Shown: positions 3,526 to 27,024, counted from the first letter of the stretch. The stretch: 36,292 nt of DNA from a virus (IMGVR_UViG_2877285697_000006:1-36292); one strand, 5' to 3'. A program made the numbers and translations. Notes: a model not told the origin generated them from the sequence alone.

Positions 3526-3723
3526 CTATAATTGGCTTAAATCAAGCTCTAGGTCTTCCGGTTCTTTCATTACTTCAACCAGAGACGGATCTACTTCGTC
3601 AAAAACGACTTTATCGTCTGCGGTATATTTGTCTATAATGAAAAAATGGTCAGAAATATAGCTTACGTCGCCAGCATATTCTAACAAAAAAGCGCCCACC
3701 AGAGGCGCTTTTGTTTTATCCAT
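3526..3723 (-). CDS. doubtful 65-aa ORF
   Basis: Open frame only; its 5' end is occupied by a terminator hairpin and it overlaps the endolysin stop. Confidence 0.2.
   Translation of the reverse strand: MDKTKAPLVGAFLLEYAGDVSYISDHFFIIDKYTADDKVVFDEVDPSLVEVMKEPEDLELDLSQL
3686..3717. terminator. bidirectional hairpin terminator (AGCGCC-caccagag-GGCGCT) with A-run upstream and T-run downstream
   Basis: GC stem flanked by AAAAA at 3686-3690 and TTTGTTTT at 3710-3717; just downstream of the endolysin stop on the minus strand. Confidence 0.45.
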
Positions 3724-4069
3724 TCCACCGTGATTTTTTTGATCTGGAATCGATATGCGTAAATGTTTTATATTTTCCTAAGCCGTATTGAGTAGGATAT
3801 TTCCCATCAAGATAAGCATGAACAATATCAGGCGAGACACCCTTGATAACAATGTCAGCCGCGCGGCCTCGAACATGATAGCTATTGGTTGCGCCGCCTA
3901 CATTCTTGTTATGAGTCGGGCAACGGTTCCCACTGTTAATAATCACTGGTTTACCGAAGTGCTCTCGTACATCCTCAAGAATCACCAGTAATTCAGCGTC
4001 GATTGTATCATAATCACATTTTCCGCATTTACATTTAAATTCCTTGCGAGAAAAATGCTTACTTAACAT
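3716..4069 (-). CDS. endolysin, peptidase M15 family (L-alanyl-D-glutamate peptidase type)
   Basis: 117 aa with zinc-peptidase motifs (SGNRCPTHNKNVGGATNSYHVRGRAADI ... FTHID); SD AGGGGG upstream. Confidence 0.75.
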   Translation of the reverse strand: MLSKHFSRKEFKCKCGKCDYDTIDAELLVILEDVREHFGKPVIINSGNRCPTHNKNVGGATNSYHVRGRAADIVIKGVSPDIVHAYLDGKYPTQYGLGKYKTFTHIDSRSKKSRWNG

Positions 4070-9500: not shown

Positions 9501-9919
9501 TATTCACCCCCGAATCTATAAACTTGTTCATAGTCAATGTCTGAAACAGGAATGGTCATCCAGATACCATCTTCTTCAACGAGGCCATAACCGGAATAAT
9601 GAGGAACTACGGAATAATAATTACGGTTTCCTAATTTGTGGGCTGTGACCAGTAAGTCGCCGTCCTGTAAATCATCAGTGACTAATTTGAAATGTTTCTT
9701 AATTGGTTGAAGGATATTTGAATACCCGCTTAATTCTTTGCAGATTTTCAAGCCTTCTTCTTTAGTTGAATATTTTTTATAAAGAGAATTATATAGGTCA
9801 GTACCAGCGAGAATATCGATGATCTTACATGCAATGAGATTGCAATCATTCTCACCCTGAACGAACTCCTGACCTATTAAAGAATTGATGTAATCGGTGA
9901 TAAGCCTAGTTTTTAGCAT
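9500..9919 (-). CDS. tail tip protein, gpK-like (possible NlpC/P60-like)
   Basis: Position between L-like and J-like genes; start placed at MLKTRL after SD GGAGGT; track ORF extends to 10075. Confidence 0.4.
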   Translation of the reverse strand: MLKTRLITDYINSLIGQEFVQGENDCNLIACKIIDILAGTDLYNSLYKKYSTKEEGLKICKELSGYSNILQPIKKHFKLVTDDLQDGDLLVTAHKLGNRNYYSVVPHYSGYGLVEEDGIWMTIPVSDIDYEQVYRFGGE

Positions 9920-9965
9920 GTTGAATACCTCCATGCTGTTATTTACTAGGCTTAGGGAGAAGGGA

Positions 9966-10619
9966 TTATTTCTTCGATGAATGCCACTTGCTTTCTGATT
10001 GCCAGCGACCCGCCCTTGAGAAGAATAGATCGTTCTCGTTTCCGGCGTATGATCGGTGGATACCATCGGAGGCATGACTACGAGCGTTTTTATCTAGAAC
10101 TTCCCAGATACTATTAAGCTGAAATTCTGATTCGTTTTTACACTCATCATCTTCATGTTCGATGTTAATCCCGATGGAATCGACTACCCCACGGAAAACA
10201 GGGTAAGTTGTTTCAACCTTGCCCGTGTTGGGGTTAAGGAATACCATTTCGATTTTCACATCTGATTTATCGAATTGCTTATTACGAATGAGAGTAATGT
10301 ATTCCTCGCGAACGTTAGAAACGGTTACGTTAATCCCGTTGTTGTTGATCTCCTTCTCTTCGGTATTCGATGAGATTTGAAGAAAATCGCCCGTTGCGAG
10401 ATATGTAAATCCGTTATAGTCCAAATCGAAATACCCATCTGTAAGCCGTAGAACGTCCCCTGACGCTGTTATCACTTCGATAATGTGAAACATCGATCCA
10501 GTGGAAAAAAGCTGCGGTAGCGTCAATCTAGACACGTTCTGACCTGTCTGGTCGTTGTAGACCTCGATGAAGTCCAGATTAGTGCATAGTTTGCTGAATG
10601 ATTCCTGAATAGTTGCCAT
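9966..10619 (-). CDS. minor tail protein, gpL-like
   Basis: Position after M-like gene; ATG overlaps upstream stop (TAATG); start at MATIQ. Confidence 0.45.
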   Translation of the reverse strand: MATIQESFSKLCTNLDFIEVYNDQTGQNVSRLTLPQLFSTGSMFHIIEVITASGDVLRLTDGYFDLDYNGFTYLATGDFLQISSNTEEKEINNNGINVTVSNVREEYITLIRNKQFDKSDVKIEMVFLNPNTGKVETTYPVFRGVVDSIGINIEHEDDECKNESEFQLNSIWEVLDKNARSHASDGIHRSYAGNENDLFFSRAGRWQSESKWHSSKK

Positions 10620-11179
10620 TATACATTCTCCACTAATTCGAATTTCATCTTGCCAATCTGGGCGATCTTCCAATCGATATTTTCAGTTTTGAGAACAAAT
10701 TCACCTTCTACGTTCTGATACTTGATCACCTCACCAGCCAGGACGTTTTGACGCAAGTTAGGGAAGAGTTTCATTTCACCACCTGATTTCACGTCTTCGG
10801 TGATCGTGTAGATTTTCTTGTGGTTCTCAAACTGGATGATAGTTCCTGCTTTCAGTGTTCCGGTGAAGTTGGAGATTCTCACCTTACGCCCACCGCGAGC
10901 AGTACCAGCAGCAGCCGTTACCATCTGGCGTACATCACCTGTATATTTTGAAAAGTAAGACAGTGGCACACTAAAAGGACGACCAAAAAGGTGACGTGCT
11001 ACAAATTCTTTTACTTCGTTAATATCCTGAGCCATGTAATTCGCTGTAAATTCTGCTTCGTAAAAATGGATGCCAGTAAAGCGACGCTGGAACTTACCGG
11101 AGATAGATTGCGCCTTGAAGAAAGGCTGTTTTGATTTAAGAGTAAAATCTGTGATTTTAATATTCTTGGATTTGAACAT
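10619..11179 (-). CDS. minor tail or distal tail protein, gpM-like
   Basis: Immediately downstream of tape measure gene; ATG start at 11179 preferred over track GTG start at 11215, which lies inside a hairpin. Confidence 0.4.
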   Translation of the reverse strand: MFKSKNIKITDFTLKSKQPFFKAQSISGKFQRRFTGIHFYEAEFTANYMAQDINEVKEFVARHLFGRPFSVPLSYFSKYTGDVRQMVTAAAGTARGGRKVRISNFTGTLKAGTIIQFENHKKIYTITEDVKSGGEMKLFPNLRQNVLAGEVIKYQNVEGEFVLKTENIDWKIAQIGKMKFELVENV

Positions 11180-11185
11180 AGAAAA

Positions 11186-11225
11186 AGCCCCCATAGTTTT
11201 ATGATTATTTATCACTATGGGGGCT
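11186..11225 (-). terminator. long hairpin (11-bp stem AGCCCCCATAG/CTATGGGGGCT) plus U-run between tape measure and next gene
   Basis: Perfect 11-bp stem with 18-nt loop; followed on the minus strand by TTTTT then the start codon. Confidence 0.35.
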
Positions 11226-11230
11226 TTTAA

Positions 11231-13660
11231 TTACATCTTACGGCGCTGTGCGTCTTCTACCGCCTGAGCAACTAACTTAGCGTGACGTTTGATAGCATCC
11301 ATGACCATCTTGTCTGAGCTATTAACGTTGCCGTTAATGTTCAAAGGCGCATTAACTTCAATCGGTTGAGAGTTGCCACCGCCTGATTTTTGAGCAGAAA
11401 GGAAGTCTTTCAAATCACCGTTGGTACGCTGATCAACTACTCGTTCACCCTTATCAAGCAACCACGTACCTTCTTTGGGGATACTGTCAATACCATCATG
11501 TGACATTCCTGTTAAATTTGTTGATTTAATGTTGGCAATATTTCCCATGTTCTGAGAAACAGCCAATGCAGCAGCAGCGATTTTTTGACCTGTGGTTACG
11601 TTGGTCGGATCGTTCCATGCATCGGTAGCAGCCGTCCACATGTTCATCGTCGCTTGTCCGATAGAGAATGCTTTATGAGCATTGAAAGCCATCTGCATAG
11701 CTTTAGTGTTTTCCTGCCCGAAAAGAGTCATTGCAGCAGCAAAACCGCCATACATATCATCGGCTATTGACTGGCGAGCATCAGCATATTTCTTTTCAAT
11801 TGCAGCCATCCGTTTTTGATGGTTTTCATTGAGTTTTTCTAATGCTTCCATCCGTTTAGCCGGATCGGTGATCCCATCAATCTTGAGTTTATCGGTCTTA
11901 TAATCTTGTTCAGCATCCGATTTCTCTTTATCGATTGCATTAAATTTAGCAAACGGATTATTTGAGTCTTGATAATCATAACCACTAGTTAATTGATTGG
12001 TTTTATAACCATCCATTCCCTGTAAAGAATTTTCAATCTGAGAATAGTTTTGCTCGGTATCGTTCACACGACGCATATATTCTTCGTAGGAGATAGCTTT
12101 ACCATCAAGTAACCGTTTATGGCTTTCTAGCTCGTTGTCCCTGATTTGTTGCAATTGTGTTAAAGCATTCAGAGCATCAATCGGATCAGCACCCAACATC
12201 ATTTTATAAACGTTTTCAGTATTCTGATCGATTAGCGCCTGGCGTTTCGCGGCTGCGTCTTCCTGAGAGATTAAGCCCAGAGCTAACGCGTCGTTCACAT
12301 CTTTTAAGCTGTTTTGCAACTGGCTATTTTGAGAAGTGATAGACGCTGCAACTTGCCCTTGCAATTTAACATCAAGTGCATTCAGTCGCTTGATTGCATC
12401 CTCGCGTGCTTTCTGTGCTTTTTCTGCGGCTTCCTTAGCCTTTTTAGCTGCCTCTTCCGCTTTCTTTTTGGCTTCTTCCTCGGCTTTCTTCTCGTTGCCA
12501 GACTTACCCAATGAAGCTGGTCGAGTTGGTGTAGTCGGGATAGTCAAATCACGGTTAGGATCTGCCTTACGGGTTAGATGTTCCCCGTTATCGACAACAA
12601 TCAGAGAGCCATTTTTCTTATAAGAATCACCAAAACGTTTCTTAAATCCTTCAACATCAAAGCCAGCAGTACGAGGATCGACACCAGCACCACGGATCGC
12701 GGCCTTTTCCCAATCTGCCAGATTATTCCAACGCTTTTCTTTATTGTACTTGTCAATAATCTTTTGAGCGTCTTTATGGTTGGCGTTAAGAATACCACCA
12801 GTTGCGGTCTTACCTTCTTTATTCAGACGGTCTAATGCCCTGAATAGAGAACTCTTTTCCCAATCAATATTAAACCATTCGAATAACCAGTTTAAACTAT
12901 CAACCAAAGGACCAGTAATGGTCATACCGACACCTTTCAGGTTATTTTCCAGCTTATTGATATTTTGAGAAAATTTATCATATTTTTTAGCGTTTTCTTC
13001 GGTGACGTTAACAGATTGATTCTGAATAGCGATCATCGCCTCTTGAGCACTATTATATTTCTCAAGCTGGCTGGTCATATGGCTTGAATCACTGGCCAAA
13101 GATTCCATCATGAACTTGATTTCAGCCATTGATTTTCCTGCTTTCTTCAGGTCATAGAACACTTGGATCGCCGCTTTCATACCACCTTGCGGATCAGTCA
13201 TGAAGTGAGCATAGTTTTCTAACTTAAGGCCAACCGATTCTAAATCATCGGCAATACCACCACCGTTAGCCCATGCATCACCCATTTTATCTAAGGTGTC
13301 TTTGTTGATATCACCAAATTTTTCAACTGTTAAGCCAGTACCAGAGAACTCCTTTTCTAATTTTTGAAGGGATTCAATCGAGAGTCCGGTCGCCTTAGAT
13401 ACTTCTGAATACTGTTTAACGTATTCCGCGCCAGCTTTAGCGGCTGCAAAAACTGCGGTCGCAACTAAGCCGATACCACCAGCAGCCAAACCAGCAGAGC
13501 CAGCGATCCCACGAAGAGATCCAGTCAAACCAGACAAACCACCGCCAAAATCGATATTACTTGCCTTTTCAGACAAACTATCTAGAAGGTTAGCGGCTTC
13601 ATTGGTACTTCTCCTTAGACCTTTATTATCCCCTTCTATTGTTACTATATGTTTTGTCAT
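11231..13660 (-). CDS. tail tape measure protein
   Basis: 809 aa, alanine/glycine-rich N-terminus, long coiled-coil and lysine/glutamate-rich repeats, position after G/T chaperones. Confidence 0.85.
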   Translation of the reverse strand: MTKHIVTIEGDNKGLRRSTNEAANLLDSLSEKASNIDFGGGLSGLTGSLRGIAGSAGLAAGGIGLVATAVFAAAKAGAEYVKQYSEVSKATGLSIESLQKLEKEFSGTGLTVEKFGDINKDTLDKMGDAWANGGGIADDLESVGLKLENYAHFMTDPQGGMKAAIQVFYDLKKAGKSMAEIKFMMESLASDSSHMTSQLEKYNSAQEAMIAIQNQSVNVTEENAKKYDKFSQNINKLENNLKGVGMTITGPLVDSLNWLFEWFNIDWEKSSLFRALDRLNKEGKTATGGILNANHKDAQKIIDKYNKEKRWNNLADWEKAAIRGAGVDPRTAGFDVEGFKKRFGDSYKKNGSLIVVDNGEHLTRKADPNRDLTIPTTPTRPASLGKSGNEKKAEEEAKKKAEEAAKKAKEAAEKAQKAREDAIKRLNALDVKLQGQVAASITSQNSQLQNSLKDVNDALALGLISQEDAAAKRQALIDQNTENVYKMMLGADPIDALNALTQLQQIRDNELESHKRLLDGKAISYEEYMRRVNDTEQNYSQIENSLQGMDGYKTNQLTSGYDYQDSNNPFAKFNAIDKEKSDAEQDYKTDKLKIDGITDPAKRMEALEKLNENHQKRMAAIEKKYADARQSIADDMYGGFAAAMTLFGQENTKAMQMAFNAHKAFSIGQATMNMWTAATDAWNDPTNVTTGQKIAAAALAVSQNMGNIANIKSTNLTGMSHDGIDSIPKEGTWLLDKGERVVDQRTNGDLKDFLSAQKSGGGNSQPIEVNAPLNINGNVNSSDKMVMDAIKRHAKLVAQAVEDAQRRKM

Positions 13661-13671: not shown

Positions 13672-14013
13672 TTAACCGCTTCTGAGTTTCTCAAGCAAAG
13701 ATGGATCAAACATGTTCAGCATTGCCGCTTTACGTTCTTCTTCTTTCTTGCGTGCAATTTCTTCCAGTTCTTCTTTAGTTTTAAAGAGTTTTTCTTCTCT
13801 AATTAATTGGAATTGGCTAGGCTTGAGTTTGCGTGCAGTTTCGCGTGTCATTCCTTGCGACGTCATATACATGGAATATTGCAACATCGCATTCTGCATA
13901 TCATGAAACGCGGGGCTTTGTGGTTCTAAGTAGGTGTCGAAAATGTATAATTTCCAAAACAGAGTGATTGGCATATTATCCATTTCATCTTTACTAAGCC
14001 CCGATCTCATCAT
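13672..14013 (-). CDS. tail assembly chaperone T segment (likely made only as G-T fusion by -1 frameshift)
   Basis: No SD before its ATG; frame is -1 relative to G and open from 14058. Confidence 0.5.
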   Translation of the reverse strand: MMRSGLSKDEMDNMPITLFWKLYIFDTYLEPQSPAFHDMQNAMLQYSMYMTSQGMTRETARKLKPSQFQLIREEKLFKTKEELEEIARKKEEERKAAMLNMFDPSLLEKLRSG

Positions 14014-14042: not shown

Positions 14043-14351
14043 TTACTTTACCTCGTTTTCAATTACTACCGCATCTTGCATCAATGACGCTTGAGCAACC
14101 AAACCGATTAATTCACTGCGGACGTTAGTATACAGTGCCTTAACTTGTTCCATAGATTCAAATACCGGCTTACCGTCTTCATCTTCAATACAACGAAGAA
14201 TAGAACGTTCATCACGGTCATCTTTATCAGTATTGAAAACATGTTCGTTAAATTCTTTTACCGACATAGGGCGAGCATAGAAAGTAAATCCACCGATGGT
14301 CAGAGATTCACGTTTCGGAGAAAGAGCTTTCAGCATTTCATTAATATTCAT
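14043..14351 (-). CDS. tail assembly chaperone, gpG-like
   Basis: 102 aa, directly upstream of T segment and tape measure; conserved G/GT architecture. Confidence 0.55.
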   Translation of the reverse strand: MNINEMLKALSPKRESLTIGGFTFYARPMSVKEFNEHVFNTDKDDRDERSILRCIEDEDGKPVFESMEQVKALYTNVRSELIGLVAQASLMQDAVVIENEVK

Positions 14352-14914: not shown

Positions 14915-14943
14915 TAAAAAAGCCCCACCATTAAGGCAGGGCT
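14915..14943 (-). terminator. rho-independent terminator (AGCCCUGCC-uuaau-GGUGGGGCU + U6), shared with the MCP locus
   Basis: 9-bp stem including GU pairs, followed by TTTTTT on the minus strand; near-identical to 20862-20888. Confidence 0.6.
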
Positions 14944-14948
14944 TAAAA

Positions 14949-15074
14949 TTAATTCTTAGCCTTGCGGCCTCGTTTTGCTGTGGCTTTCGCCGTAACTTCT
15001 TCTACTTCTGGAATCACCACCGCTTCATGTTCTGGTAGTAGTTCCGGTTCTATTAAAGGAAGTTCTTCGTTAGT
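14949..15074 (-). other. 41-codon in-frame open extension after the UGA stop of the upstream gene (possible readthrough extension)
   Basis: Translates TNEELPLIEPELLPEHEAVVIPEVEEVTAKATAKRGRKAKN; no start codon; homologous to the extension after the MCP gene. Confidence 0.4.
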
Positions 15075-15545
15075 TCATCCAGCGGTAAACACTTCCTGTT
15101 TGATCGGCTTTCCATCCACCGCGAAGGTGAACTCTTTGGTTACAACTTCTTCATCGCCACCGTTCATAGCAACTTTAGAAATAAAGCCGTTGAAAGCGGT
15201 GCGAATACCAGTCTGCTTATCCGCTGATACGTAATACTCTACTTTAATCTGGATTCGAGTACCATCTTCGGCAGCTTTGATCAATTTTTCGTGGACACTA
15301 TCCCCGGGGATGTAATTCACCGTAAGAGTCAGATCAGGAACATTCAGTTTACCTACCAGCTTACGGTTGTACTGAGAAGAGAAGGATTTAACTTCTACAG
15401 TACCGCGCTCGATAGCAGTTTCCGGGAATCCGGCGCACTCTTTAATTTCTTCGTAACCGGAGTGATCGAGAGTGGTATTAGTGGTATCCGCGTGATAGAA
15501 CAGACTTACCAGACCACCAGTAAAAATATCATTAAATTGAGACAT
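15075..15545 (-). CDS. major tail (tube) protein candidate
   Basis: 156 aa, strong codon bias, SD AAGGGG; carries the same 3' module as the MCP gene. Confidence 0.45.
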   Translation of the reverse strand: MSQFNDIFTGGLVSLFYHADTTNTTLDHSGYEEIKECAGFPETAIERGTVEVKSFSSQYNRKLVGKLNVPDLTLTVNYIPGDSVHEKLIKAAEDGTRIQIKVEYYVSADKQTGIRTAFNGFISKVAMNGGDEEVVTKEFTFAVDGKPIKQEVFTAG

Positions 15546-15601
15546 AGAATTACCCCTTAATTAAAATTGTTATTACGGGGGAACTAGTCCCCCGACTTTT
15601 A

Positions 15602-18600
15602 TTATTTAGTTGCTTTGAGTTCGGCAATCTCTTTAGTCAATGCTTCAATCTTAGCTTGATATTTGGCGTCCATTTCCTGAATAGCTTTAATAATCAAGGC
15701 ATTAACAGCAGAGTTAGAAATAGTCTTAATTGCTTCCGGTTGTTCTGGATCTTCGGTGGATTGAATACCTACTGCTTCCGGCAATACTTCCTCCAGATCC
15801 TGAGCAATAATACCGACTTCGCGTTTAATCACTGTGTCATCGGAAAGAGATTTAACTTTATCGTATGTGTAGACTTTCAGGGAGTTTACTTTCTCTAATG
15901 CGCCGTCCTGTAATTCTTCCTTGTTAATCTTCAAACGGGAGTCAGAGCGAATGTAAACATCGTTAAAGCTACCGTTGCGATGAGCATTAAAATCACCGTC
16001 CATAGTAAATTCCCAGCGTGCTTGCTGCCCGTTGGCGTTATCACCTCGCATACGGATAATACCAGTACGCCAACCGTGAGTCGAACCGCTACCCGTCCAA
16101 CCAAACTCGAAGGACTGACGATAACCAACATCACCTAAGTTACTATAGCCAGCGATAATAGGGAAATATGCACCAGACTCCTTAATACTATCCATGTTAA
16201 CCAAGAATGGAGCACGGTCACGAGTTACATCAGAGATATCGGCATAACCGAAACCGTTTTTGTTGGCAACAACAACACGACGGTTAAATGTAACACCGCC
16301 TGACGTATGGCGAACAACATTAACATTATTAGCGTAGGTATCAAGAACACCATCACCGTTTTGTTTAAATCCAGTATCACTATCGCCTAAAACAATAGAA
16401 TTTCCACCCAATCCGTTAGCAACACCAACACCAAAACCGCTATTAAACTTAGGAATGGTTGCATCCTGACTAATAGACAGTTGGGGAGCGTTAATTTTAC
16501 CGTTTACGCTAAACTCGATTGCGGTAGTACCGGGACCGCCAGCACGCTGTGTGTAGAAATGCCAGCCGCTTTCATCTGCGCATTCTAATACTTGTTTACG
16601 AGTATCATTACCCCATGCACGAATATTGAAGCTAGATTGTCCGGTATTCTTACCCCATCGCATTTGACCAGCAACTTCAAGATCACCTAAGAAATATGCC
16701 TTTAGTCCACCTGTAGCCATATTACGTTCAGTGCTGAAATGTCGGCCTTTACTGTCTTCGAGATATAGAATGTTATCACGGGCATTATTGCTGTCGCCCC
16801 AATGGTTAAACCGGAAATAGTCTCTAGATTGTCCAGCACCAGCATCAAGTGTTAAATGTTGACCTTTGATGAAAGCGTTTCCAGCGAATCGAGCGGCTTT
16901 GCTTGCACGTTCTAACGTTAATGCGTCTCCGTTACCGTCACCGCCTAATTGAACGTTACCGGAAGTTAAATCATAAATGAATGGACGGTAAGTATTCCAA
17001 CCACCAAATTTATCATTTTCAGCCGTTGACAGAAGATAAACTTTAGCGGAGTCATTACGCCAGAATGCACCATAATTGCCGTAAATCATACGAAATGCGT
17101 TATGGTTGGCAGCAACATATTCGCCGTTAGTATAAACTACTTTAGTAGATCCAGTATTCAGAGAGATTTGACCGCTTTGTTCTAAGCCAATATTGTTAGT
17201 ACCGCTATCGTTATACATCTGCATAGCGTTAGTATCGGCATTTCCATAACCAACCCAACCTTGACGCTTATTTGCACCGTTGCGAGTGTCCCAATATTCC
17301 AGATAGTTACTTTGTCCGGTTGGTCGCTGCATACGAATAGTATTAGATCCGGCATCAAAAACAGCTTTACCAGTATACATAGTGCGTCCAGTGATTCGTA
17401 GAACTTCGCTAGAATCGGTAGTGCCAGTCGCTAAACGATATACGTTACCTTGAACAGTTTCATGCCAGATTGTTTCTGCGGCTTTACTACGGAATTTACG
17501 CAGATATTTTTTACCAGTACCTGAATCGTTATTCAAACTGACAATATCATATGTTCCCTGACCGTTATTATCAAACATCAACGTTCCGGCCTTGTTTTCG
17601 GTGTTGAACATTGTAATAACACGTCCATCAGTAACACCAGTAGACGGCTTAACGAGAGTTATTTCAGGAACGTCATGTACCGTCAGTGTAACATCGTTAG
17701 TTTTACCATATTCGACAATAACGTTATCGGTATAACGACCGTAGTTAACGTAGATATCGTAGTTATCACCGGAAGTATTAACCGCAAATACTTGATGAAT
17801 ATTTTTAGCATTTCGACGATAAGCCGCAATACTAACGCCTTTCGGGTTTCCGTTGCCGCTACGAATGACGATTTCTACAAAGTCAACCTGATCATAGGAG
17901 TTAACGTTATAACCGTTACCACCGAAGATACGAAGCATTACCATTCGACCAGTTTGTGGGATCGTGGCGGTTGCGATTTTGAAATAACCGCGAGTCGCAT
18001 CACCAGCCGGAACAGACATTTTAACGTTTTTAACAAACATCTTGTCAACTTCGGCTTTGGTATATGCGCCAATTTCAGCAGGAGTCGGTTTATCCCCTTC
18101 GTGATACATTTTATAGCTAAACGCTTTTTGTCCTTCTCTATCAAAACCATAGGTTTCAACACGAGATCCACCAGACGCATAACGGAAAGTAAATCCGCGA
18201 CCGTGCGCTTTACCGGAAGAGTGAGGAACGTTAAGAGTTAGATCCATGAGTCCATCTTGACCATTGGTACGGAAAGCACCGAAGTAATTAAGATCTCTCG
18301 CGGTTGAATCTTCCAGATAGTTACCAGTCTTGCTATACAAATACGCGCCGTGATAGGTCTTTGTGTTCTTCTTGATGTAAAGAGCATCGTTAGTACCTTC
18401 AATACCATCAATTCGCTTGTTGGCGGCTGCAATCGCTGCGTCGGCACTGGCCTTGTTATTTGCAACAGTTCGTTCAATGGCTGTCTTATTCGCAGAGACC
18501 GTACTAGTAAGACTGGTGATCTTCGTGTCCGCGTCTTTCTTATTATCGGAAACAGTTTTTTCGATCGCTGTCTTGTTCGCGGAGACAGTACCCGTTAAAC

Positions 18601-19210
18601 TAGAAATTTTATTATCAGCGTCGGTTTTATTCGCGGTAACAGTCTTAGTTAAATTGCTAACATTGGTGTTGGTAGCATCGACTCGCGCGTTAGTATTGGT
18701 ATTGTTGGTGTTAACGGTATTAGTAAGAGTAGTGATCTTACTGTCTGCATCTTTCTTATTGTTCGCGACGGTAGTCTCAATCGCTGATTTGTTCGATGCA
18801 ACGGTGTTAGTTAAGCTGGTGATCTTAGTATCAGCATCAGCTTTATTCGCCGTTACCGTCTTAGTTAAGTTGCTAACATTGGTGTTGGTAGCATCAATGC
18901 GCTTATTGGTTGCGGTGTCTTTAGTGGTAATAGTCTGATTCAGTTCAGATTTAGCAGCAGCCAGATTATTAGCGGCTTCTTGTTTGTTGGAAGAAATAAC
19001 ACGGTCAGTGTTGGTTTTATTCTGGTCTACTTTCGTGTTAAGTTCAGCGTGTTTTTCTGGAGAAACACTAATTTGGACTACGTTATTATTTTTGTCTTTG
19101 GTGTAAATCACATGGTCCGCCAGTTGTAAAGCGATCTCACCCTGTGATAATTGTTCCGGCGTTGGTTTTTTACCAGCCGTTTGTGTGCGTTTAAATTGGA
19201 TCGATTTCAT
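15602..19210 (-). CDS. tail fibre protein with C-terminal intramolecular chaperone (peptidase S74-type) domain
   Basis: 1202 aa; ~33-aa repeats (TKTVTANKxDADxKISSLT...); C-terminus SDSRLKINKEELQDGALEKVNSLKVYTYDK...GIIAQDLEEVLPEAV fits the auto-cleaving chaperone motif. Confidence 0.8.
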   Translation of the reverse strand: MKSIQFKRTQTAGKKPTPEQLSQGEIALQLADHVIYTKDKNNNVVQISVSPEKHAELNTKVDQNKTNTDRVISSNKQEAANNLAAAKSELNQTITTKDTATNKRIDATNTNVSNLTKTVTANKADADTKITSLTNTVASNKSAIETTVANNKKDADSKITTLTNTVNTNNTNTNARVDATNTNVSNLTKTVTANKTDADNKISSLTGTVSANKTAIEKTVSDNKKDADTKITSLTSTVSANKTAIERTVANNKASADAAIAAANKRIDGIEGTNDALYIKKNTKTYHGAYLYSKTGNYLEDSTARDLNYFGAFRTNGQDGLMDLTLNVPHSSGKAHGRGFTFRYASGGSRVETYGFDREGQKAFSYKMYHEGDKPTPAEIGAYTKAEVDKMFVKNVKMSVPAGDATRGYFKIATATIPQTGRMVMLRIFGGNGYNVNSYDQVDFVEIVIRSGNGNPKGVSIAAYRRNAKNIHQVFAVNTSGDNYDIYVNYGRYTDNVIVEYGKTNDVTLTVHDVPEITLVKPSTGVTDGRVITMFNTENKAGTLMFDNNGQGTYDIVSLNNDSGTGKKYLRKFRSKAAETIWHETVQGNVYRLATGTTDSSEVLRITGRTMYTGKAVFDAGSNTIRMQRPTGQSNYLEYWDTRNGANKRQGWVGYGNADTNAMQMYNDSGTNNIGLEQSGQISLNTGSTKVVYTNGEYVAANHNAFRMIYGNYGAFWRNDSAKVYLLSTAENDKFGGWNTYRPFIYDLTSGNVQLGGDGNGDALTLERASKAARFAGNAFIKGQHLTLDAGAGQSRDYFRFNHWGDSNNARDNILYLEDSKGRHFSTERNMATGGLKAYFLGDLEVAGQMRWGKNTGQSSFNIRAWGNDTRKQVLECADESGWHFYTQRAGGPGTTAIEFSVNGKINAPQLSISQDATIPKFNSGFGVGVANGLGGNSIVLGDSDTGFKQNGDGVLDTYANNVNVVRHTSGGVTFNRRVVVANKNGFGYADISDVTRDRAPFLVNMDSIKESGAYFPIIAGYSNLGDVGYRQSFEFGWTGSGSTHGWRTGIIRMRGDNANGQQARWEFTMDGDFNAHRNGSFNDVYIRSDSRLKINKEELQDGALEKVNSLKVYTYDKVKSLSDDTVIKREVGIIAQDLEEVLPEAVGIQSTEDPEQPEAIKTISNSAVNALIIKAIQEMDAKYQAKIEALTKEIAELKATK
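18430..18960. repeat. tandem ~99-bp DNA repeats inside the tail fibre gene
   Basis: Repeated units visible on the DNA; produces low-complexity antisense ORFs. Confidence 0.6.
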
Positions 19211-19291
19211 CTAGAATCACCTCACTATAAAACAGGAATAAGGGAGGCGTTAACCTCCCAACGTTCATGTTTTATTTAGGTAGGAGAATCC

Positions 19292-20125
19292 TTAGTATTC
19301 GCCGAAATCGATCCGGTCAGTCTTAGCCACTGCGCCAATTTCGGCTGGCGTTGGTTTCTCATTAGTGGAATATACCTTGATCCATTCAGAGCGACCGTTT
19401 TCCTGAATATTTCGGACGCGTAAACGTGGTGCGCCAGAAGTATTACAGGTTAATTGCCATGCGCCATGCTCATTAGCTTGAAGGTGAATTAATGCTGTGT
19501 CGGTTGAATATGGATTACCGCTAGCAGTTCCCTTGTAAGTTACGAAACGGTTTCCGGCTAAAGCATCACTATCAATCGGACCTGTGAATGGATGTACACC
19601 TGCACCTACGCCATAATCCCCGCGACGGAGAAGACGACCCTCCGTTGCAATACCGCGATCCAGAATCCCGCCATCTGGTTCAAGTTTAAATTCCAGTGTT
19701 ACAGCTTTGTTATCTGCGCCACGGGTTTTATGTGATGTGACGTAAGCATCGAATATACAAAAGTACCCTGTGTTAGCAGCACTATAGCCAGAGTTCACAA
19801 CATAGAACATACGGAAGCGTAAAGGTGTTTTATCCTCTACCGCTTTCATCAACATTGCTTGATGTTCATCGTCAAGAACACGGTTTAATGTGAGTGTTGT
19901 CGGTTCCAGTCTACGATAACCAGCAAGTTTCCCCGTAGCGTCCTGATCGTACTCTTCCAGAGTTTCTATCTCTGTGGATTCGGTTAGCGTAGGGAATGCT
20001 GCGATGTTCTCCATAGAACTAAAGCTAGGATCGAAAAAGTCGACCTGATTGGTAAGCTGATCAGAGATTGAAATCTCTACATGGCTTCCAGTAAAAATTC
20101 CTAAGTTATCATGCGTAATATTCAT
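19292..20125 (-). CDS. structural protein sharing a KPTPAEIGA motif with the tail fibre
   Basis: 277 aa; C-terminal NEKPTPAEIGAVAKTDRIDF matches motifs in the 1202-aa fibre; SD AAGGGG. Confidence 0.4.
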   Translation of the reverse strand: MNITHDNLGIFTGSHVEISISDQLTNQVDFFDPSFSSMENIAAFPTLTESTEIETLEEYDQDATGKLAGYRRLEPTTLTLNRVLDDEHQAMLMKAVEDKTPLRFRMFYVVNSGYSAANTGYFCIFDAYVTSHKTRGADNKAVTLEFKLEPDGGILDRGIATEGRLLRRGDYGVGAGVHPFTGPIDSDALAGNRFVTYKGTASGNPYSTDTALIHLQANEHGAWQLTCNTSGAPRLRVRNIQENGRSEWIKVYSTNEKPTPAEIGAVAKTDRIDFGEY

Positions 20126-20134: not shown

Positions 20135-20557
20135 TTAAAAACGCGCTAGATAAGAAAATTTAAGGCTAAGTGTCCCAACGATACCCCCATCACTAGAATC
20201 ATCGTCATAATCGGTATTAGAGGCTACTGGAGTGATATCTGAAATAGCGAAGCCCAAATCTTTAAAACGTGGGTTATCCGGCTGAATCTGGATTATCTGG
20301 CAAATACCCTCATGAATTTTGGTTTCATGATTCTGAGAATACAACTGCATTTCGATAACGCATTCAGCTTGCATTGCATTACCACCACGGACCCTTGTGT
20401 AAGTCTCATTCATTCCGGTAATCCAACAAACCACGTCATCACTAAAGCCTTGCTGAGTTTGTTCTACGTTTAAAGCCAGACCTAAATCTTGTTCGATAAT
20501 ATCCTGCAAGGCGCGTTTGATTTTCAGTCTCGGCATATTATTAACGGTAGCGAGCAT
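20135..20557 (-). CDS. head-tail joining or head completion protein candidate
   Basis: Position between MCP and tail genes; start moved to MLATVNN (SD AGGGGG); track ORF extends to 20638. Confidence 0.4.
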   Translation of the reverse strand: MLATVNNMPRLKIKRALQDIIEQDLGLALNVEQTQQGFSDDVVCWITGMNETYTRVRGGNAMQAECVIEMQLYSQNHETKIHEGICQIIQIQPDNPRFKDLGFAISDITPVASNTDYDDDSSDGGIVGTLSLKFSYLARF

Positions 20558-20831
20558 GTGTACCCCCTGCACGAGCAATAAAGCAATCAGAAGTATTATC
20601 ACCATTGCGCTTAACGTATTGAACTTTGAAGCGTTCACCGTCTACAATGACAACATCACCCTGATTTAAGTTTCCCTCACGACAAAATAGAAATTCTGAT
20701 TCTGTAATTACCCCTTGTTCGTCGGTAGTAGTAATTTCATGATAAGCACGAATTGATTTACCACCTTCCACCGAAAATACAGGAGCACTTTTAAACATTC
20801 TTGATAATTGTGATTCTGATAATTTGAACAT
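20541..20831 (-). CDS. head-tail connector or head completion protein candidate (96 aa)
   Basis: First gene after MCP terminator; SD AAGGGGG. Confidence 0.4.
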   Translation of the reverse strand: MFKLSESQLSRMFKSAPVFSVEGGKSIRAYHEITTTDEQGVITESEFLFCREGNLNQGDVVIVDGERFKVQYVKRNGDNTSDCFIARAGGTHARYR

Positions 20832-20861: not shown

Positions 20862-20888
20862 AAAAAAGCCCCACCGTTAGGCAGGGCT
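20862..20888 (-). terminator. rho-independent terminator after the MCP locus (same hairpin as 14915-14943)
   Basis: AGCCCUGCC-uaac-GGUGGGGCU followed by U6 on the minus strand. Confidence 0.6.
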
Positions 20889-20980: not shown

Positions 20981-21940
20981 TCATTCGCCGATCTGGAGAA
21001 CTTTAAGAGCTTCCGGCTGTACTACAGTGAAGTCAATGTCCAGCCAGATTCTAGGCACGATCGCAGACTGGGCGCGGTACGTTGAATCGTCCAGATCTAG
21101 CTCAAGACCGCCCCACTCACCGATCATGATGCCGCTGTAATCGCCCAGCACGATCGTGTCAGCTGGAATAACACCGGAAGTAATTACATCGTAACCAGCC
21201 AGTTTGCCGTTTTCGATGATATAACCGGAAACGCCGTTATCTTTCAGGGTAGATTCCAGTTCAGCAGCAGTTGCACCGCTCATTGCAAACTTGATGGACT
21301 GTGCCGGAACGCCAGCGTCCGTAAGCTGAGCAATCTCCTTGAGGAAGTCTTTGTAAGAGAAAGCGGCTTTCTTAGTAACGCGACCACCGTCTACCAGTTG
21401 CTTAACCAGACCTTTCGGACCGCGCTCGTTGTCTTTGTCAGACAGAATCAGTTGTTCCAGTTTGATCCGAACAGATTTGTTAATGTGATCAGTGATCAGG
21501 GTAGCGATGCCCGGAACGGTTTTGAGGCTAGCCCTAGAAATTGGGTTCCCGCCTGCGAAAGTTTTCGGAGCCATTTTCACGTTTTCAAAGCTAGCCTTCG
21601 ATTCGGGGGCACTTCCATTTTCATCAACAAAACCAAAGGCTTCGACGCTGGAAGCAGTCATTTTTGGTACTGCAATCGGGCTATTCAGACCAGACAGAAC
21701 AGTCACACCCAGACGACCCAGAACAGACTGTGGAAGCAGCATTTCAACATAGGATTCGGTCAGCAGTTTTTCGTCGGTTACAGCTTCCAGAGTAGCTTTG
21801 GTGTTACCAGCAGAAGCAGCACGCAGAGCAGCAGCCGGAACGAATACAGAGCCACCACGAGCAGCACCGACCACGCTGCATTGCAGCACCAGCAGCCATT
21901 GCGGAATATTCAGCTTCATGAGCACCCAGAGTTTCACCAT
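20981..21940 (-). CDS. major capsid protein (HK97 fold); N-terminus probably supplied by the upstream protease-scaffold ORF
   Basis: 319-aa ORF with strong codon bias and capsid-like sequence; no SD before its ATG; MCP frame has a TGA immediately upstream. Confidence 0.75.
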   Translation of the reverse strand: MVKLWVLMKLNIPQWLLVLQCSVVGAARGGSVFVPAAALRAASAGNTKATLEAVTDEKLLTESYVEMLLPQSVLGRLGVTVLSGLNSPIAVPKMTASSVEAFGFVDENGSAPESKASFENVKMAPKTFAGGNPISRASLKTVPGIATLITDHINKSVRIKLEQLILSDKDNERGPKGLVKQLVDGGRVTKKAAFSYKDFLKEIAQLTDAGVPAQSIKFAMSGATAAELESTLKDNGVSGYIIENGKLAGYDVITSGVIPADTIVLGDYSGIMIGEWGGLELDLDDSTYRAQSAIVPRIWLDIDFTVVQPEALKVLQIGE

Positions 21941-22985
21941 CGATCAGGGAGCGGAATACGTTGTTCAGGTCAAAAGTTTTTTCCATGATTTGTTCCTTAT
22001 TAATTTGTTCGTTATTACGTTGAGCATTGATAATGTTATTTAGTGCCTTAGTGCGGAATGCTTCCGGCGTCATGTCTTTAACTGCCAATGCGCGTTTTAA
22101 TTCTTCGTCGTCAATATTTAGTTCCCGCGCGATCTCGCGAATTTCTAATTCGTCTTCTTCGGAACGTTCAGCCACTTCTTCGATTTTTTCTTCTTCAACC
22201 GGAGCGGCTTCACGTTCTTCTTTTACTTCTTCTGCTTCCCGAACAGTTGAACTATCATCATCAACACTTTCAGGATGTTCAGCGACTTTTCCGTCTTCGA
22301 GATTTTCATTTTCTTCATTCTCTTCAACTTGGCGCTCTTGAGTTTCTTCAACTTTCGGTTCTTTATTTTCTTCTACCGGAGTTTCTTCAACCTGAGCGGG
22401 TTCTTGTTCTTCTTTGATTTCTTCGATTTGTTCTTTAGTCATATCGCGTTTAGCCTCCAAATTAACTGTGATAGTATTTAGAGAGCGATTTAAACCGACC
22501 GTATCGTCAGCAGGAACGGTAACGAAACTTAATTCGTATGGTGCCCACTTAGTAACAATCAATTGCCCTTTGGCGTAATCGATGTGATATTCTTTAATGT
22601 CATAGCCGACAGAAATTTTTTCCATCGTACCTTCAATGACTTTATTACGAACATCATTAGCCAAAGTGCCATGTTTAGAGAATTTAACCAGAGCACGGCC
22701 TACGTTATCCGCATCGATTCGAGCGTCGCAGACTACACCTAAATGATTATCGAAATTATGATTGAACAGCAACGGAGCGTTATTATTCAGACGAGACAGA
22801 TCAACCGCTTCCGGTGTATGTACCAGAATTTCATCTAATACCACCATTTCTTGATTTTGCTCATCCCAAAATTGGCGCTGATAAGGCTGTGTACTTGAGA
22901 AAGCAATTTCAAATTCGTATTGATCGTTATGCCCTTCGTTAATAACTCCACCGTAACCGTTAAGATCGCGGCGAAATTTAAGCAT
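21804..22985 (-). CDS. prohead protease (HK97 S78-type) fused to acidic coiled-coil scaffold domain
   Basis: N-terminal ~180 aa with LLFNHNFDNHLG-type protease motifs, then glutamate-rich region; 3' end (RCCSWWLCIRSGCCSACCFCW) looks like out-of-frame translation of the MCP start. Confidence 0.7.
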   Translation of the reverse strand: MLKFRRDLNGYGGVINEGHNDQYEFEIAFSSTQPYQRQFWDEQNQEMVVLDEILVHTPEAVDLSRLNNNAPLLFNHNFDNHLGVVCDARIDADNVGRALVKFSKHGTLANDVRNKVIEGTMEKISVGYDIKEYHIDYAKGQLIVTKWAPYELSFVTVPADDTVGLNRSLNTITVNLEAKRDMTKEQIEEIKEEQEPAQVEETPVEENKEPKVEETQERQVEENEENENLEDGKVAEHPESVDDDSSTVREAEEVKEEREAAPVEEEKIEEVAERSEEDELEIREIARELNIDDEELKRALAVKDMTPEAFRTKALNNIINAQRNNEQINKEQIMEKTFDLNNVFRSLIDGETLGAHEAEYSAMAAGAAMQRGRCCSWWLCIRSGCCSACCFCW

Positions 22986-23030: not shown

Positions 23031-24542
23031 TTAGGGATCGGCTGGGGAATTTTTTTCTTCACCCTCGCCATTAACGATAATATTTAGTGCGCTGGATTCA
23101 GACCTGATCTCTGAGAATACTTTTTCAGGATCGTCACCACGTTCTAATATAACGGCAGTACGTGATTTAAGTCCTTTATCAATTAAAGCAATCTCGGCGT
23201 TTACGTCTTTAATTGGGTCGACAGACTCGAAACGTGGCCTGATAATAGTAGTGTTATCGATAATATGTGGAATTGCAGTAATACGAATCGGAACAATACC
23301 ACGCGCGGAATAATGGCGTAGATATGCTTCAAAAATTGGCAATACCACTGTTTCAATTAATTTGTTTTGCAATGCTTTAACTCGTGTGCGCTGGGTTAAT
23401 TCACCGAAACGTGCGGCTGAGTAGTTGATCTGGGAAGTATCACCAGTCAAGCCCTGTTTGAACACTCCTAAGCCCATTGCTACGCTAGTGAACATACCAT
23501 CATTGAAGCTGTTAAAGTCATCGCCACTTTGCGTGGATTGAATACTCTTGATCGTTGCCCCTTCCGGTAATTCCTGAATAGTGCCAGGCGCGAAATCGTG
23601 AATAACTTCCGGCGCTTGATATTGTTCATCATCTTCACCAGTATCAAAATCATCACCAGAATCTTTCGGACGCTCGATGAACGCCATGCTACAACTTGAA
23701 ATTCGTTTATGTACCAGTACAGCTTCGCGGAATGCGTCTTGATGTGCGATATCCTTAATCACTGGCAGGAAGTCAGTCACGCCGCGCAAACTTTCGGCGC
23801 ACAAGGGCTGATAGTAATGACATACTTGCGATGCATCTACGCGATAGTTATCACCTGTGTAGGTTTGAGTCAGTAGGTTGATTTTACGAAACCAAAATGC
23901 TACGGGCTTCATCGTTTCTACGTCATACTCAATACCTTGATAGATCGCACGGTCTTTGCTTACTTCACGGTTGAGCGTCCAGTCGCACTTATCAGCAGAC
24001 AGGATAGAAACATTTAACTCATTGTTTTCTTTGGTTAAAACGATGAAACACTCACCACCCATAACGCGCTCACGTTCAGCCATTACCAGCAGTTCACGGA
24101 AGTTAAAGCGACCGTTACGAGAGAAGCGTTTAGCATTCTGCGCCCACTTCCAGAAAGCATTCTCGATCTGCTTATTCAGTGCGCTATCAAGTTTGCCATT
24201 TGATTTAACAACTGACGGCTTCGGATCTAGGCCAGTACCGACCACCATATCGGTGATGTATTGCGTGTAGCGACTGCCTACGGAAGTGTTTAAGGCCAGA
24301 GTACGCCCCTGATCATAAAGGCGCTTACCGTTCGATTTGAGAGCCTTATTGAAGGTTCCGGTAATGGTGTCTTGTTGAAGCGATCCATCAATGCGATCAC
24401 CAACCAGACCTAAACTACGTTTAGATAGGTCTTTCTGGAATTTTTCTACTTGCTTATCGATGAAAATTTTTGGTTGTTGCTGGCGGTGATTAGTTTTAAC
24501 TGGAGTTTCTACCGCCTTTTTGCGTCGAAAAAGATTAAACAT
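23031..24542 (-). CDS. portal protein (lambda gpB-like)
   Basis: 503 aa, position between terminase and protease, SD AAGGGG. Confidence 0.8.
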   Translation of the reverse strand: MFNLFRRKKAVETPVKTNHRQQQPKIFIDKQVEKFQKDLSKRSLGLVGDRIDGSLQQDTITGTFNKALKSNGKRLYDQGRTLALNTSVGSRYTQYITDMVVGTGLDPKPSVVKSNGKLDSALNKQIENAFWKWAQNAKRFSRNGRFNFRELLVMAERERVMGGECFIVLTKENNELNVSILSADKCDWTLNREVSKDRAIYQGIEYDVETMKPVAFWFRKINLLTQTYTGDNYRVDASQVCHYYQPLCAESLRGVTDFLPVIKDIAHQDAFREAVLVHKRISSCSMAFIERPKDSGDDFDTGEDDEQYQAPEVIHDFAPGTIQELPEGATIKSIQSTQSGDDFNSFNDGMFTSVAMGLGVFKQGLTGDTSQINYSAARFGELTQRTRVKALQNKLIETVVLPIFEAYLRHYSARGIVPIRITAIPHIIDNTTIIRPRFESVDPIKDVNAEIALIDKGLKSRTAVILERGDDPEKVFSEIRSESSALNIIVNGEGEEKNSPADP

Positions 24543-24552: not shown

Positions 24553-25047
24553 TTATCGCGTAAGACGTAATTTGATATTTTTAATCGGACTAATTCCCTG
24601 TTTACGTCGTTCGGCTTGAATTAATTTAGATAACTGACATTCATAATCAGTCTTTAATTGCTGGAGAACAGCCAATGACTCATAGGCGAAAGTATTCCCT
24701 TTCACTGTCATTTGAGATAATGCGGCTTCGTCCCCAGATAAACGGGCGAAAATAACTTGCTCGATTACAGAAATCGTTTCGCGCAGATATTCTTTTTTGG
24801 ATTGTTTGGCGAATACTGGCAAAACAGTTAATTCCTGCATTGATACCAGTTCTTCTTCCAAAGTTATTACGATGGTATATTTACCTTCGGCAAAATCTAA
24901 GGTTTTAATCTCGTGATTAGCCGGAGTATCATCAACCTGATAAATGATACCTTTACTATTTCCTACCTGAATTGTTACACCCTCTTCATTCGCCAGCGTG
25001 ATTTTTTCGCCTTTACGAATTACTAAGGGAATTAGTTCTAAACTCAT
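24553..25047 (-). CDS. hypothetical protein (164 aa) between terminase and portal
   Basis: ORF in late operon. Confidence 0.5.
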   Translation of the reverse strand: MSLELIPLVIRKGEKITLANEEGVTIQVGNSKGIIYQVDDTPANHEIKTLDFAEGKYTIVITLEEELVSMQELTVLPVFAKQSKKEYLRETISVIEQVIFARLSGDEAALSQMTVKGNTFAYESLAVLQQLKTDYECQLSKLIQAERRKQGISPIKNIKLRLTR

Positions 25048-25119: not shown

Positions 25120-27024
25120 TTAGAACGATGTTACCCAGCTACGGCCTCTGTTTGGGCGTCTGGCGACGTTTTGACGTTGTGGTCGTGTGATTGGCTTAGT
25201 TTCTTCTATTTGCTCGTTAGATTGCGATTTAGGAGCTTCTACGGATTCTTCGACAACACGGTTTAAGCTGTCTTTCATTGCAATGAGTTTATCCCATGAC
25301 ATTTTTGAAAGAACGTAGCGAGAAGCCGCTGTAGCATACACGGCGCAGTCGAGCGCCTCGTTCCTAACGCCTGGGTTCTTTACCCACCTCACGCCAGTAG
25401 TAGTACGCTTAACAGATTCACTTAAAAGCTGATCGAGATAATCATCAGGAACGGTGTCTGATATTTCTAAGCCAATATGAGGATTATCTTTCAGGTTCCT
25501 AGCCAACATTTCACGAAATGCAGTTTTACCCACGTTAACGCCCAGCATAAGCAATTCATGACCACCTGTGCGGGTAGGTTTAACCGGAATGATCGGAGCG
25601 TTACCAGCAGAACTACCTTTGATAGCGTGTAAGTTCTTCCACTTGCCGCAAATACGGTATCCAGCTTGAGTGAATCGACCGTTCGATGTATCAAGGAAGC
25701 TGGCGAGCATAGGAACACGATCACCCGATACAGTAGTAAATTTGGTTTTATGGAAGTTGATTAATCTATCCCATACAGGGGATTCATATCGTTCACAGTT
25801 ATGATCGTAAAAGCTGCGATGATCCAGAATATAAATCTTATCCTTTGCCACGCCCATGATCGTAGTTTCTGCGCGATCTAATTGCTGGTCAGTACCCGCA
25901 CACAAGAAAATCACGTCATCAGGGATATTCTCGATAGAAACATCTGTTTTGAGTTGTTCCAGTTCATTTGCTTCTACTGCCGTGTCCTGATCGTCGTATA
26001 CCTTGCCTAACACGGTGTTAAAAAAGGATTGTAAATCAAAGGATTGCCACGCATGACTAAAATCAACCACACAAGCGCGAATCGTGCTGAAAGGTGAATA
26101 CAGACGACTGATCCAGAATCCGGCTACTTCACTTTCACGGGTTGCTCTCCACTCGCCTTGTGCTACTGCCCTGATTCGTTCCCCTTCTGTCCATGCGTTC
26201 TTACAGTGGGGGCAAATATAACGAGCGGTATCAGGATCGGGTAAGTTCTTACCATCAATGTTACGCCATTCAAATTGAACGTTTTCCCACTCGATCACCT
26301 GGTGTTCCCCGCAATGCGGACACGGAACAAAAAACATACGCATGTCGCTTGATAACCATTGCTGGTTAATGCTTCCCAGCTTACTGGTCGGGGTACTGGA
26401 TACGACTAATCGGCCTTCATCGCCAAAGGTAGTTAAACGGTTAGCAGCCAGTGCCACCGGATCACCTTCTTCTGAGGCTGTAGCAGCATCGATTTCGTCA
26501 AGCAATCCAACCTTTGCGGTCTTACCACGTAGGGTTGATGGACTGGTAAGCGATACCATGTACAGGAAGTGATTCGTTTTTAGCTGTAGCTGGTTATTGT
26601 TGTTAACCGCATTGCGATCATTCTTGTCTGTAACCACGTCTTTTAATGCATCACATGCTTCGATAGACGGTCGGATCTTACCCGCGAGATATTGAGACAT
26701 TTCTTTAGCGGTTGATTGTCCGATAATCATATTGCATGGATCGTTAGCCATCTGGTTAAACAGGATGCCGTTCAGGATGGTAGTCTTTCCGATCTGCGCA
26801 CTGGTCATCAGAACATACTTTTTCTTGTTCTCAAGGAAAGGAGCATCAATCATGCCTTTCTGGAATGACAGTAATTTAACTTTATCCCCCGCTTGAGGAC
26901 CATCTACCAGCACCATATTAGCTTCGCACCATTCAGAAGGAAGGAGCTTAGGCGGTGGAGTGATATATTTTGCGGCATTTTTAAGAATCTTTTTTAATTT
27001 TGCCTTATTTGAAATCAGTTTCAT
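25120..27024 (-). CDS. terminase large subunit, lambda GpA-like
   Basis: 634 aa; ATPase P-loop region (TSAQIGKTT), zinc/nuclease-like CPHCGEHQ...CPHCKNAW; SD GAGGGT. Confidence 0.85.

Follow-up and report, generated by a model that had tools for sequence, protein, structure and literature searches.

A tail-tube-fold protein with a gp36-like end as probable anchor of a T-even-type distal half-fibre in a family of enterobacterial siphovirus prophages

How could the tail of a siphovirus carry a long fibre of T-even type whose gene lies, together with that of a small partner protein, between the head-completion and the tail tube genes? This question is raised by positions 15,602 to 20,125 of the viral sequence IMGVR_UViG_2877285697_000006:1-36292, a temperate siphovirus prophage of E. 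coli whose full 36,292 nucleotides (nt) we call the window. A sequence-only reading had pointed to two open reading frames (ORFs) here, which measure 1202 and 277 amino acids (aa), with coordinates that proved exact. It had taken the longer for a tail fibre and the shorter for its partner, had called their placement atypical and had proposed that a shared motif, KPTPAEIGA, serves as a common attachment or recombination-exchange element. The placement between head-tail joining and tube genes was borne out and differs from the lambda-like order. Homology lets us identify the parts with high confidence as a putative anchor (277 aa), a fibre (1202 aa) and a tip adhesin encoded nearby (168 aa), and we consider it probable that they represent the distal half-fibre of T-even phages (gp36-gp37-gp38), grafted onto a siphovirus tail via a fusion of a tube fold with gp36.

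Structure prediction for the 277-aa anchor gave tube proteins as best matches, and the sequence itself is recognisable as a paralogue of the phage's tube protein (28% identical). Both results speak against a tail terminator or a neck or collar protein with whiskers, a proposal to which we give hardly any weight. The anchor has the tail-tube fold but not the position of the tube gene, which is held by a 156-aa gene located upstream of the chaperone and tape-measure genes, apart from an inserted gp38-like gene. Its identification as the terminator in particular was rejected because the neighbouring 140-aa protein, encoded upstream and modelled from a shallow alignment of eight sequences, has the terminator fold (gpU / DUF3168 type), and since this protein is the terminator by fold, the anchor is an extra tube-fold protein. 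Sequence searches against solved structures gave no match for the anchor, the terminator profile or the fibre N-terminal profile, and Pfam gave none for anchor-family members of 342-698 aa; the family is without a Pfam domain, and nearly all source records name it 'hypothetical protein' and a few 'Phage tail protein'.

Behind the tube-fold domain, residues 164-256 are very conserved but modelled with low confidence, and contain the stretches GDYGVGAG, GNRFVT, NPF..DT and W..RVR. The small beta module formed here resembles the shaft modules of tail fibres and is aligned by hhalign with the fibre's own module at 93% probability, the homology covering about 50 residues that end in KPTPAEIGA. A HMMER search with the ~110-residue module found 155 matches among 1.84 billion cluster representatives, and all eight non-family matches that were sampled are long tail-fibre proteins.

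The relationship to gp36 appears towards the C-terminus. In a BLASTP comparison anchor residues 180-277 match the last 100 residues (396-496) of RB49 gp36 with 32% identity (E 8e-6), and the alignment reaches both C-termini (..KPTPADVGAVPLNAVIDFGTF), with QLYHEGNKPTPADVGAVPLNAVIDFGTF in one protein and KVYSTNEKPTPAEIGAVAKTDRIDFGEY in the other. T4 gp36 ends in DSVQDFGYY; D273 and G275 of the anchor are invariant in 38 homologues, and 70 of 71 family members have a D.G.[FYLE] C-terminal end. The last ~35 residues of the segment 164-256 give an alignment with the N-terminal portion of T4 gp36. Longer members of the family show more of this protein: a Klebsiella member (P0088) matches T4 gp36 residues 6-165 with E 1e-15 over 166 residues, and P0101 (28.8 bits) and P0106 (32 bits), of the class of 1204- and 1209-aa anchors, exceed the cut-off of 26 for Phage_T4_gp36 (PF03903), the core of which corresponds to T4 gp36 residues 56-195. 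Judged by these alignments the window anchor is a minimal member that keeps the segments flanking the Pfam core without the core itself. Like a gp36 gene, it is encoded directly upstream of a gp37 homologue.

This homologue is the fibre. Its residues 1-62 match residues 4-65 of T4 gp37 (34% identity, E 5e-11), a tblastn search with its first 60 residues leads to 1296 phage records and there to the beginning of gp37 genes, and the gp37-type N-terminus is kept in all fibres of the family. At the DNA level the segment for residues ~290 to 1180 shares 74-85% identity with Krischvirus gp37, as found by megablast in 31 T4-like phage records, which indicates that the shaft part was exchanged recently. 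The claim of a C-terminal S74-type chaperone also held: Peptidase_S74 (PF13884) covers aa 1089-1147 (E 7.9e-14), the C-terminal ~135 residues give a match to the tip of S16 gp37, 6f45 (E 1.1e-6), and a cleavage motif DVYIR^SDSRLK is predicted at residues 1084-1094, with the cut between R1088 and S1089. Its first seven residues are identical to the self-cleavage site DVYIR^SDGRLKI of T2/S16-type gp37, in which release of the chaperone exposes the docking surface for gp38 (PMC7917993). The 168-aa protein in turn carries Gp38_N (PF21721, E 4e-15) at residues 6-43 with W10 and W23 present, matches phrog_1121 tail fiber adhesin over its full length (E 4.4e-34) and is 44% identical to the 'receptor recognizing protein Gp38' of Stx phages; it belongs to the short type known from these phages, and Pfam shows no match to GP38 PF05268, in which polyglycine-rich motifs alternate with hypervariable segments. 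An Enterobacter relative (L003) encodes a 269-aa gp38 with PF05268. Among relatives the stalk differs in length by 28 residues, the internal motif being found at residue 346 or 374. In an E. coli variant (L139 5916-9887, and L140) the fibre is split into an 826-aa gp37-N-type protein, a 92-aa protein and a 401-aa protein, the last being a coiled-coil protein with an S74 chaperone.

That the 277-aa protein is indeed the partner of the fibre is best seen from the conservation of the gene pair. Our survey comprised 71 anchor genes of full length, taken from IMG/VR, assemblies and genomes, with E. coli, Shigella, Salmonella, Enterobacter, Klebsiella, Atlantibacter and Buttiauxella as hosts. A gp37-N-type fibre gene follows the anchor gene in all 66 loci with at least 1.8 kb of downstream sequence, directly in 64 of them and behind an inserted DUF723/CapR gene in two. 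After the fibre the content varies between an S74 chaperone, a separate assembly chaperone and a long or short gp38, and the tube gene is always located 3' of the fibre module. Of two genome-collection scans the first gave no matches and the second matches in only 3 species. The extension that separates the first motif of the anchors from their constant tail ranges from none (277 aa) to ~930 residues (1209 aa), and the 1209-aa anchor is paired with a fibre that has the same N-terminus but only 490 aa. Over 19 distinct anchor lengths, uncorrected for relatedness, longer anchors tend to go with shorter fibres (rho -0.44, p 0.06). In the IMG/VR loci two types of anchor C-tail had seemed to be paired perfectly with the fibre N-terminus, but further loci broke this pattern and co-variation of the two was rejected, since three tail variants occur with an identical fibre N-terminus. 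The inserted gene, seen in some E. coli relatives, encodes a homing-endonuclease-like protein of 418 aa (L136 5960-7216, L138 5965-7221); a second copy of DUF723/CapR type is located between the portal and capsid genes of the same loci (994-2025 in both), and the loci with the endonuclease-like gene carry anchor variants that diverge right after KPT.

T4 gp36 is a trimer that binds gp37 in its N-terminal region and is then itself bound by gp35 (PMC3004832). As the prophage has a gp36-like element fused to a tube fold and no homologue of gp34 or gp35 was found among the window ORFs scanned, we infer a ring and a docking joint. The tube-fold domains of the anchor would make up a ring, either as a component of the tail tube or stacked in it, and this ring may lie beside the tail terminator or beside the distal tail protein. 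Three gp36-like C-termini per fibre would converge and dock the fibre trimer's N-terminal domain, which would replace gp35, gp34 and the baseplate attachment of T4. After trimerisation the last 114 fibre residues would cleave themselves off between R1088 and S1089 and thereby expose the adhesin-binding surface, the 168-aa adhesin would cap the fibre tip once the chaperone is released, and the fibre would make the first, reversible contact with the host surface. Docking of the gp36-like tail with the gp37-like N-terminus is quite probable, if anything slightly more so than the graft as a whole, and for a discrete ring within the tube the chances are even.

Whether such an anchor sits in one ring or all along the tube is a matter on which the gene order gives an indication only. 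Near-identical hairpins (AGCCCTGCC-loop-GGTGGGGCT, then a T run) follow the capsid gene (20867-20888, -15.9 kcal/mol) and the tube gene (14920-14944, -17.0 kcal/mol) on the minus strand. The hairpin between anchor and fibre genes (19242-19259, minus strand; GGGAGGTTAACGCCTCCC then a T-rich run; -12.7 kcal/mol, z -2.8) and that of the fibre gene (15576-15594) are weaker. The capsid, tube and fibre genes thus have their own hairpin each, and a single block between hairpins holds the anchor gene together with those of the stopper and the terminator. Because these two are ring proteins of low copy number, a single ring fits better than a major tube component. A tube fold, clear paralogy with the tube protein and a Shine-Dalgarno sequence (AAGGGGTAAT) as strong as that of the tube gene could also describe a second, decorated tube subunit that co-polymerises along the whole tube, with its module as surface decoration or short whisker and with the long fibre attached elsewhere, for example at the distal tail protein or the tip; decoration of tube proteins is common, and the longer anchors look as if they carry complete short fibres. 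We regard this as unlikely because the anchor has a gp36-type tail and is always followed by a gene that begins with the gp37-type domain, the partner of gp36 in T4, because its gene sits with the stopper and terminator block and not with the tube gene, and because single subunits scattered in mixed rings could presumably not make trimeric gp36-like stubs.

Several points weigh against the anchor as a gp36-like connector built into a tube ring. The window anchor has no Pfam gp36 match, the core domain PF03903 not being found, its direct comparison with T4 gp36 is not significant (E 0.25), and a database-wide tblastn search led to gp36-type genes at a borderline E of about 7e-3; hhalign of the whole family alignment with T4 gp36 gave only 67% probability over 34 columns. 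The link therefore rests on RB49 gp36 and on transitive homology via the longer members. The AF2 confidence is low for anchor residues 163-204. A hexameric ring and trimeric fibres differ in symmetry (6:3 mismatch), so that each ring would have to carry two fibres. The anticorrelation of anchor and fibre lengths is weak, the three tail variants with the same fibre N-terminus leave no signal of co-evolution, and because of a frameshift in the capsid gene (see below) this prophage may not make particles.

The motif KPTPAEIGA itself led in a different direction. Both the mid-fibre copy (aa 374-382, 18065-18091) and the copy near the C-terminus of the anchor (aa 257-265, 19331-19357) are exact, as had been claimed, whereas the supposed copy at the fibre N-terminus (aa 14-21, KKPTPEQL) has no more than KPTP in common with them and belongs to the gp37-type N-terminal domain. 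For proteins of 277 and 1202 aa the chance expectation of sharing an exact 9-mer is ~6e-7, and in the DNA 23 of 27 bases are the same, 12 of them in an uninterrupted row, between flanks that are random-like (~41% over 156 nt). A degenerate DNA scan of IMG/VR, however, found the exact nonapeptide in 65 loci with 69 in-frame copies, where fewer than one would be expected by a rough estimate. These copies belong to at least 15 unrelated long-ORF contexts, including T4-like contigs of 160-180 kb and P2-size ones of ~30 kb, and they always come after a W/Y..(I/V)Y.... strand and before Gly/Ala/Ser-rich, GDTMTG or SHTH stretches; RB49 gp36 alone has four of them. By this distribution the motif is a generic module junction of phage fibres, and the idea of a signature common to the two proteins had to be given up. 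In most relatives KPTPSEIGAV in the anchor goes along with KPTPGEIGAY or KPTPTELGVY in the fibre, in others KPTPAEIEAV with KPTPAEIGAY, and the fibres of Enterobacter and Klebsiella members are without the motif, which their anchors keep. As the copies differ in relatives and the consensus is common, the identity of all nine residues in the window is a coincidence. A co-evolving pair of motifs was rejected, the two proteins of relatives carrying different variants and distant fibres none.

With this knowledge the two roles proposed for the motif can be separated. The copy in the anchor lies within the gp36-type tail, the likely attachment element, but the N-terminal copy in the fibre is a different element. 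A dedicated element linking both proteins, be it for attachment or for recombinational exchange, is improbable, even somewhat more so than the decorated tube subunit. Exchange at conserved motifs of T-even fibres is reportedly an established idea, associated with the names of Tetart et al. 1998 and Sandmeier 1994. Within the anchor family all four combinations of a window-type or QKGGQSRW-type left part with AVAKTDRIDFGEY or AAELEVVSIHDRIDFGYY on the right are found, one locus (L084) being window-type through STNEKPT and continuing with AAELEVVSIHDRIDFGYY, so that the mosaic junctions fall at KPT, with breakpoints within ~10 codons of it. The motif is also the longest DNA identity between the two genes, but with 12 identical bases it is short for homologous recombination of the two, and the tails that diverge after KPT adjoin the homing-endonuclease-like gene, so that co-conversion could explain the junction. 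In the fibre the homology to Krischvirus gp37 begins ~85 codons upstream of the motif and not at it, and neither the many unrelated contexts nor the different, or missing, copies in relatives fit an element dedicated to these two proteins. Among the anchor variants, then, the motif can act as a point of exchange.

Coordinates of the anchor, the fibre and the neighbouring genes are collected in Table 1.

Table 1: Features of the anchor, the fibre and the surrounding genes in the window (positions counted from the first nucleotide).
Feature	Positions	Strand	Remark
Anchor (277-aa protein)	19292-20125	-	
Anchor residues 1-163, tail-tube-fold domain	19637-20125	-	paralogue of the phage's own tube protein
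Anchor residues 164-256, Gly-rich stretch and small beta module	19358-19636	-	invariant columns in 38 homologues
Anchor residues 257-277, KPTPAEIGAVAKTDRIDFGEY, gp36-type tail, proposed docking end	19295-19357	-	
Tail fibre, 1202 aa	15602-19210	-	
Fibre residues 1-62, gp37-type N-terminal domain, includes KKPTPEQL	19025-19210	-	
Fibre coiled-coil region, 216-nt (72-aa) tandem duplication	18498-18929	-	74% identity between copies
Fibre residues 374-382, KPTPAEIGA, shaft-module junction	18065-18091	-	
Fibre shaft and tip, DNA similarity to Krischvirus (RB49-like) gp37	15671-18343	-	megablast
Gp34_trimer-type domain, fibre aa 657-746	16973-17242	-	Pfam PF21446 E 1.6e-24; PDB 4uxe/5nxf matches
Fibre residues 1089-1202, predicted self-cleaving intramolecular chaperone	15605-15946	-	PF13884
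gp38-like protein, 168 aa	14394-14900	-	
Tail tube protein, 156 aa, canonical	15075-15545	-	phrog_158 E 6.9e-22; Pfam Phage_TTP_11/12 weak
Tail terminator, 140-aa form of 167-aa ORF	20135-20557	-	fold match
96-aa gpFII-like protein	20541-20831	-	weak Pfam match
Protease-scaffold-capsid gene	20981-22985	-	frameshift splits this copy
Portal	23031-24542	-	
164-aa head-tail joining protein	24553-25047	-	phrog_5774
Large terminase	25120-27024	-	
Two tail chaperones	14043-14351, 13672-14013	-	
Tape measure	11231-13660	-	
Distal tail protein	10619-11215	-	phrog_1302
Hub	9966-10673	-	
DUF6950 protein	9500-10075	-	
Tail tip protein, 1258 aa	5724-9500	-	
Endolysin	3716-4069	-	
Serine integrase	1487-3181	+	

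All late genes of the prophage are located on the minus strand, its portal and terminase are of lambda type, and its tail tip is RcGTA-like. Similar prophages are present in 55 of 5426 complete E. coli genomes (about 1%), one of them adjoining ghrA/ycdX, and the anchor family also occurs in Salmonella, Shigella, Enterobacter, Klebsiella, Proteus, Providencia and Edwardsiella. The phage collection contained no isolated phage that matches the window element beyond the fibre. The first 22 kb of PQ671644.1 (Escherichia phage DCP80, 141 kb, labelled Straboviridae/Gaprivervirus) are a siphovirus head and tail module of the anchor family, encoding a 699-aa anchor and a 745-aa fibre, and this record may be a chimeric assembly. 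In an Enterobacter/Klebsiella subclade (L005, L006, L114, L120, L122, L125, L132) the tube gene is directly followed by the DUF6950 and tail-tip genes, without the chaperone, tape-measure, distal-tail and hub genes in between, which may reflect either a deletion that recurs or a tail organised in another way.

Two of the neighbouring genes show peculiarities of their own. An extra G at ~21868 (GGTCGGTGC vs GGTC-GTGC in NZ_CP178634, E. coli VTB96775v, whose related prophage at 2.897-2.925 Mb has a capsid gene without frameshift) splits the protease-scaffold-major capsid fusion into two overlapping ORFs, whereas relatives have a single ORF of 612-690 aa; the insertion reflects either a prophage copy that is defective or an error of sequencing. 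The TGA of the tube gene (15075-15077) is followed on the minus strand by 41 in-frame sense codons (TNEELPLIEPELLPEHEAVVIPEVEEVTAKATAKRGRKAKN) up to a TAA at 14949-14951, and more than 20 related prophages keep both the TGA and the open frame, with amino acid changes but with indels only in multiples of three. The UGA is therefore a candidate for programmed read-through, which would give a C-terminally extended tube protein of 198 aa.

The pieces of this system are known, namely gp36, gp37 and gp38 of the T-even phages, S74 chaperones, rings of tube paralogues and the sharing of fibre genes by T-even phages and lambdoid prophages. In the literature, which we covered incompletely, we found no description of a tube-fold/gp36 fusion or of this prophage family, nor of a two-gene fibre module between terminator and tube genes, and a recent preprint describes gp36-like proteins as exclusive to myoviruses in Klebsiella phages. 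How siphoviruses fix their side fibres has been solved only recently for two models, T5 with its p140 ring and p132 collar and Ur-lambda with the fibre's own collar. The tube-fold/gp36 fusion would, if true, be a third solution, in which a ring of tube paralogues bears covalent gp36-like connectors and the half-fibre plugs in without gp34, gp35, baseplate or collar, the arm being elastic (0 to ~930 residues) and trading length with the fibre; to this proposal as a whole we would give half of our credence. It would also mean that the T-even distal half-fibre module has moved between virus morphotypes by a change of the anchor only. The joint between gp36 tail and gp37 N-terminus might then be a candidate standard plug for swapping receptor-binding fibres in engineered phages, and correct annotation of the anchor would improve the prediction of host range for these prophages.

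Among the known systems the distal half-fibre of T4 and other T-even phages is the closest to the prophage module. Both have the gene order of connector, fibre and, nearby, adhesin, both share a homologous fibre N-terminus (gp37) and a homologous connector C-terminus (gp36), and the predicted self-cleaving chaperone and the Gp38_N domain of the tip adhesin are those of the T2/S16 type, in addition to the shaft part with its DNA identity of 74-85% to Krischvirus gp37. The prophage differs in being a temperate siphovirus without a baseplate and without a gp34 or gp35 homologue among the ORFs scanned, in a gp36-like part that is without the PF03903 core and fused to a tail-tube-fold domain, and in a tube gene that separates the adhesin gene from the fibre gene. 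In T5 the tube-protein paralogue p140 forms a ring that carries the fibre collar (PMC10038345) and thus sets a precedent for a tube paralogue carrying the attachment of fibres. There, a separate Ig-like collar protein, the dodecameric p132, anchors the L-shaped fibres (pb1), and p140 has a duplicated tube domain and forms trimers without an extension, whereas the connector in the prophage is fused to a single tube domain; a sequence relationship to p132 or pb1 was not seen. The Stf of Ur-lambda is likewise a siphovirus side fibre with gp37-related parts at a tube ring junction (PMC12617516), but it is held without a separate anchor by its own N-terminal collar domain, 12 copies of which wrap the gpV/gpM junction, and the stf gene is located after the tip genes, while the prophage fibre has a gp37-type N-terminus. 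Finally, lambda gpV with its C-terminal Ig-like domain and SPP1 gp17.1* show the same succession of a tube fold and a C-terminal surface module. In these two the decoration belongs to the major tube protein itself, whereas the prophages have a separate paralogue with a gp36-like extension of 0-930 aa that is always paired with a long fibre gene.

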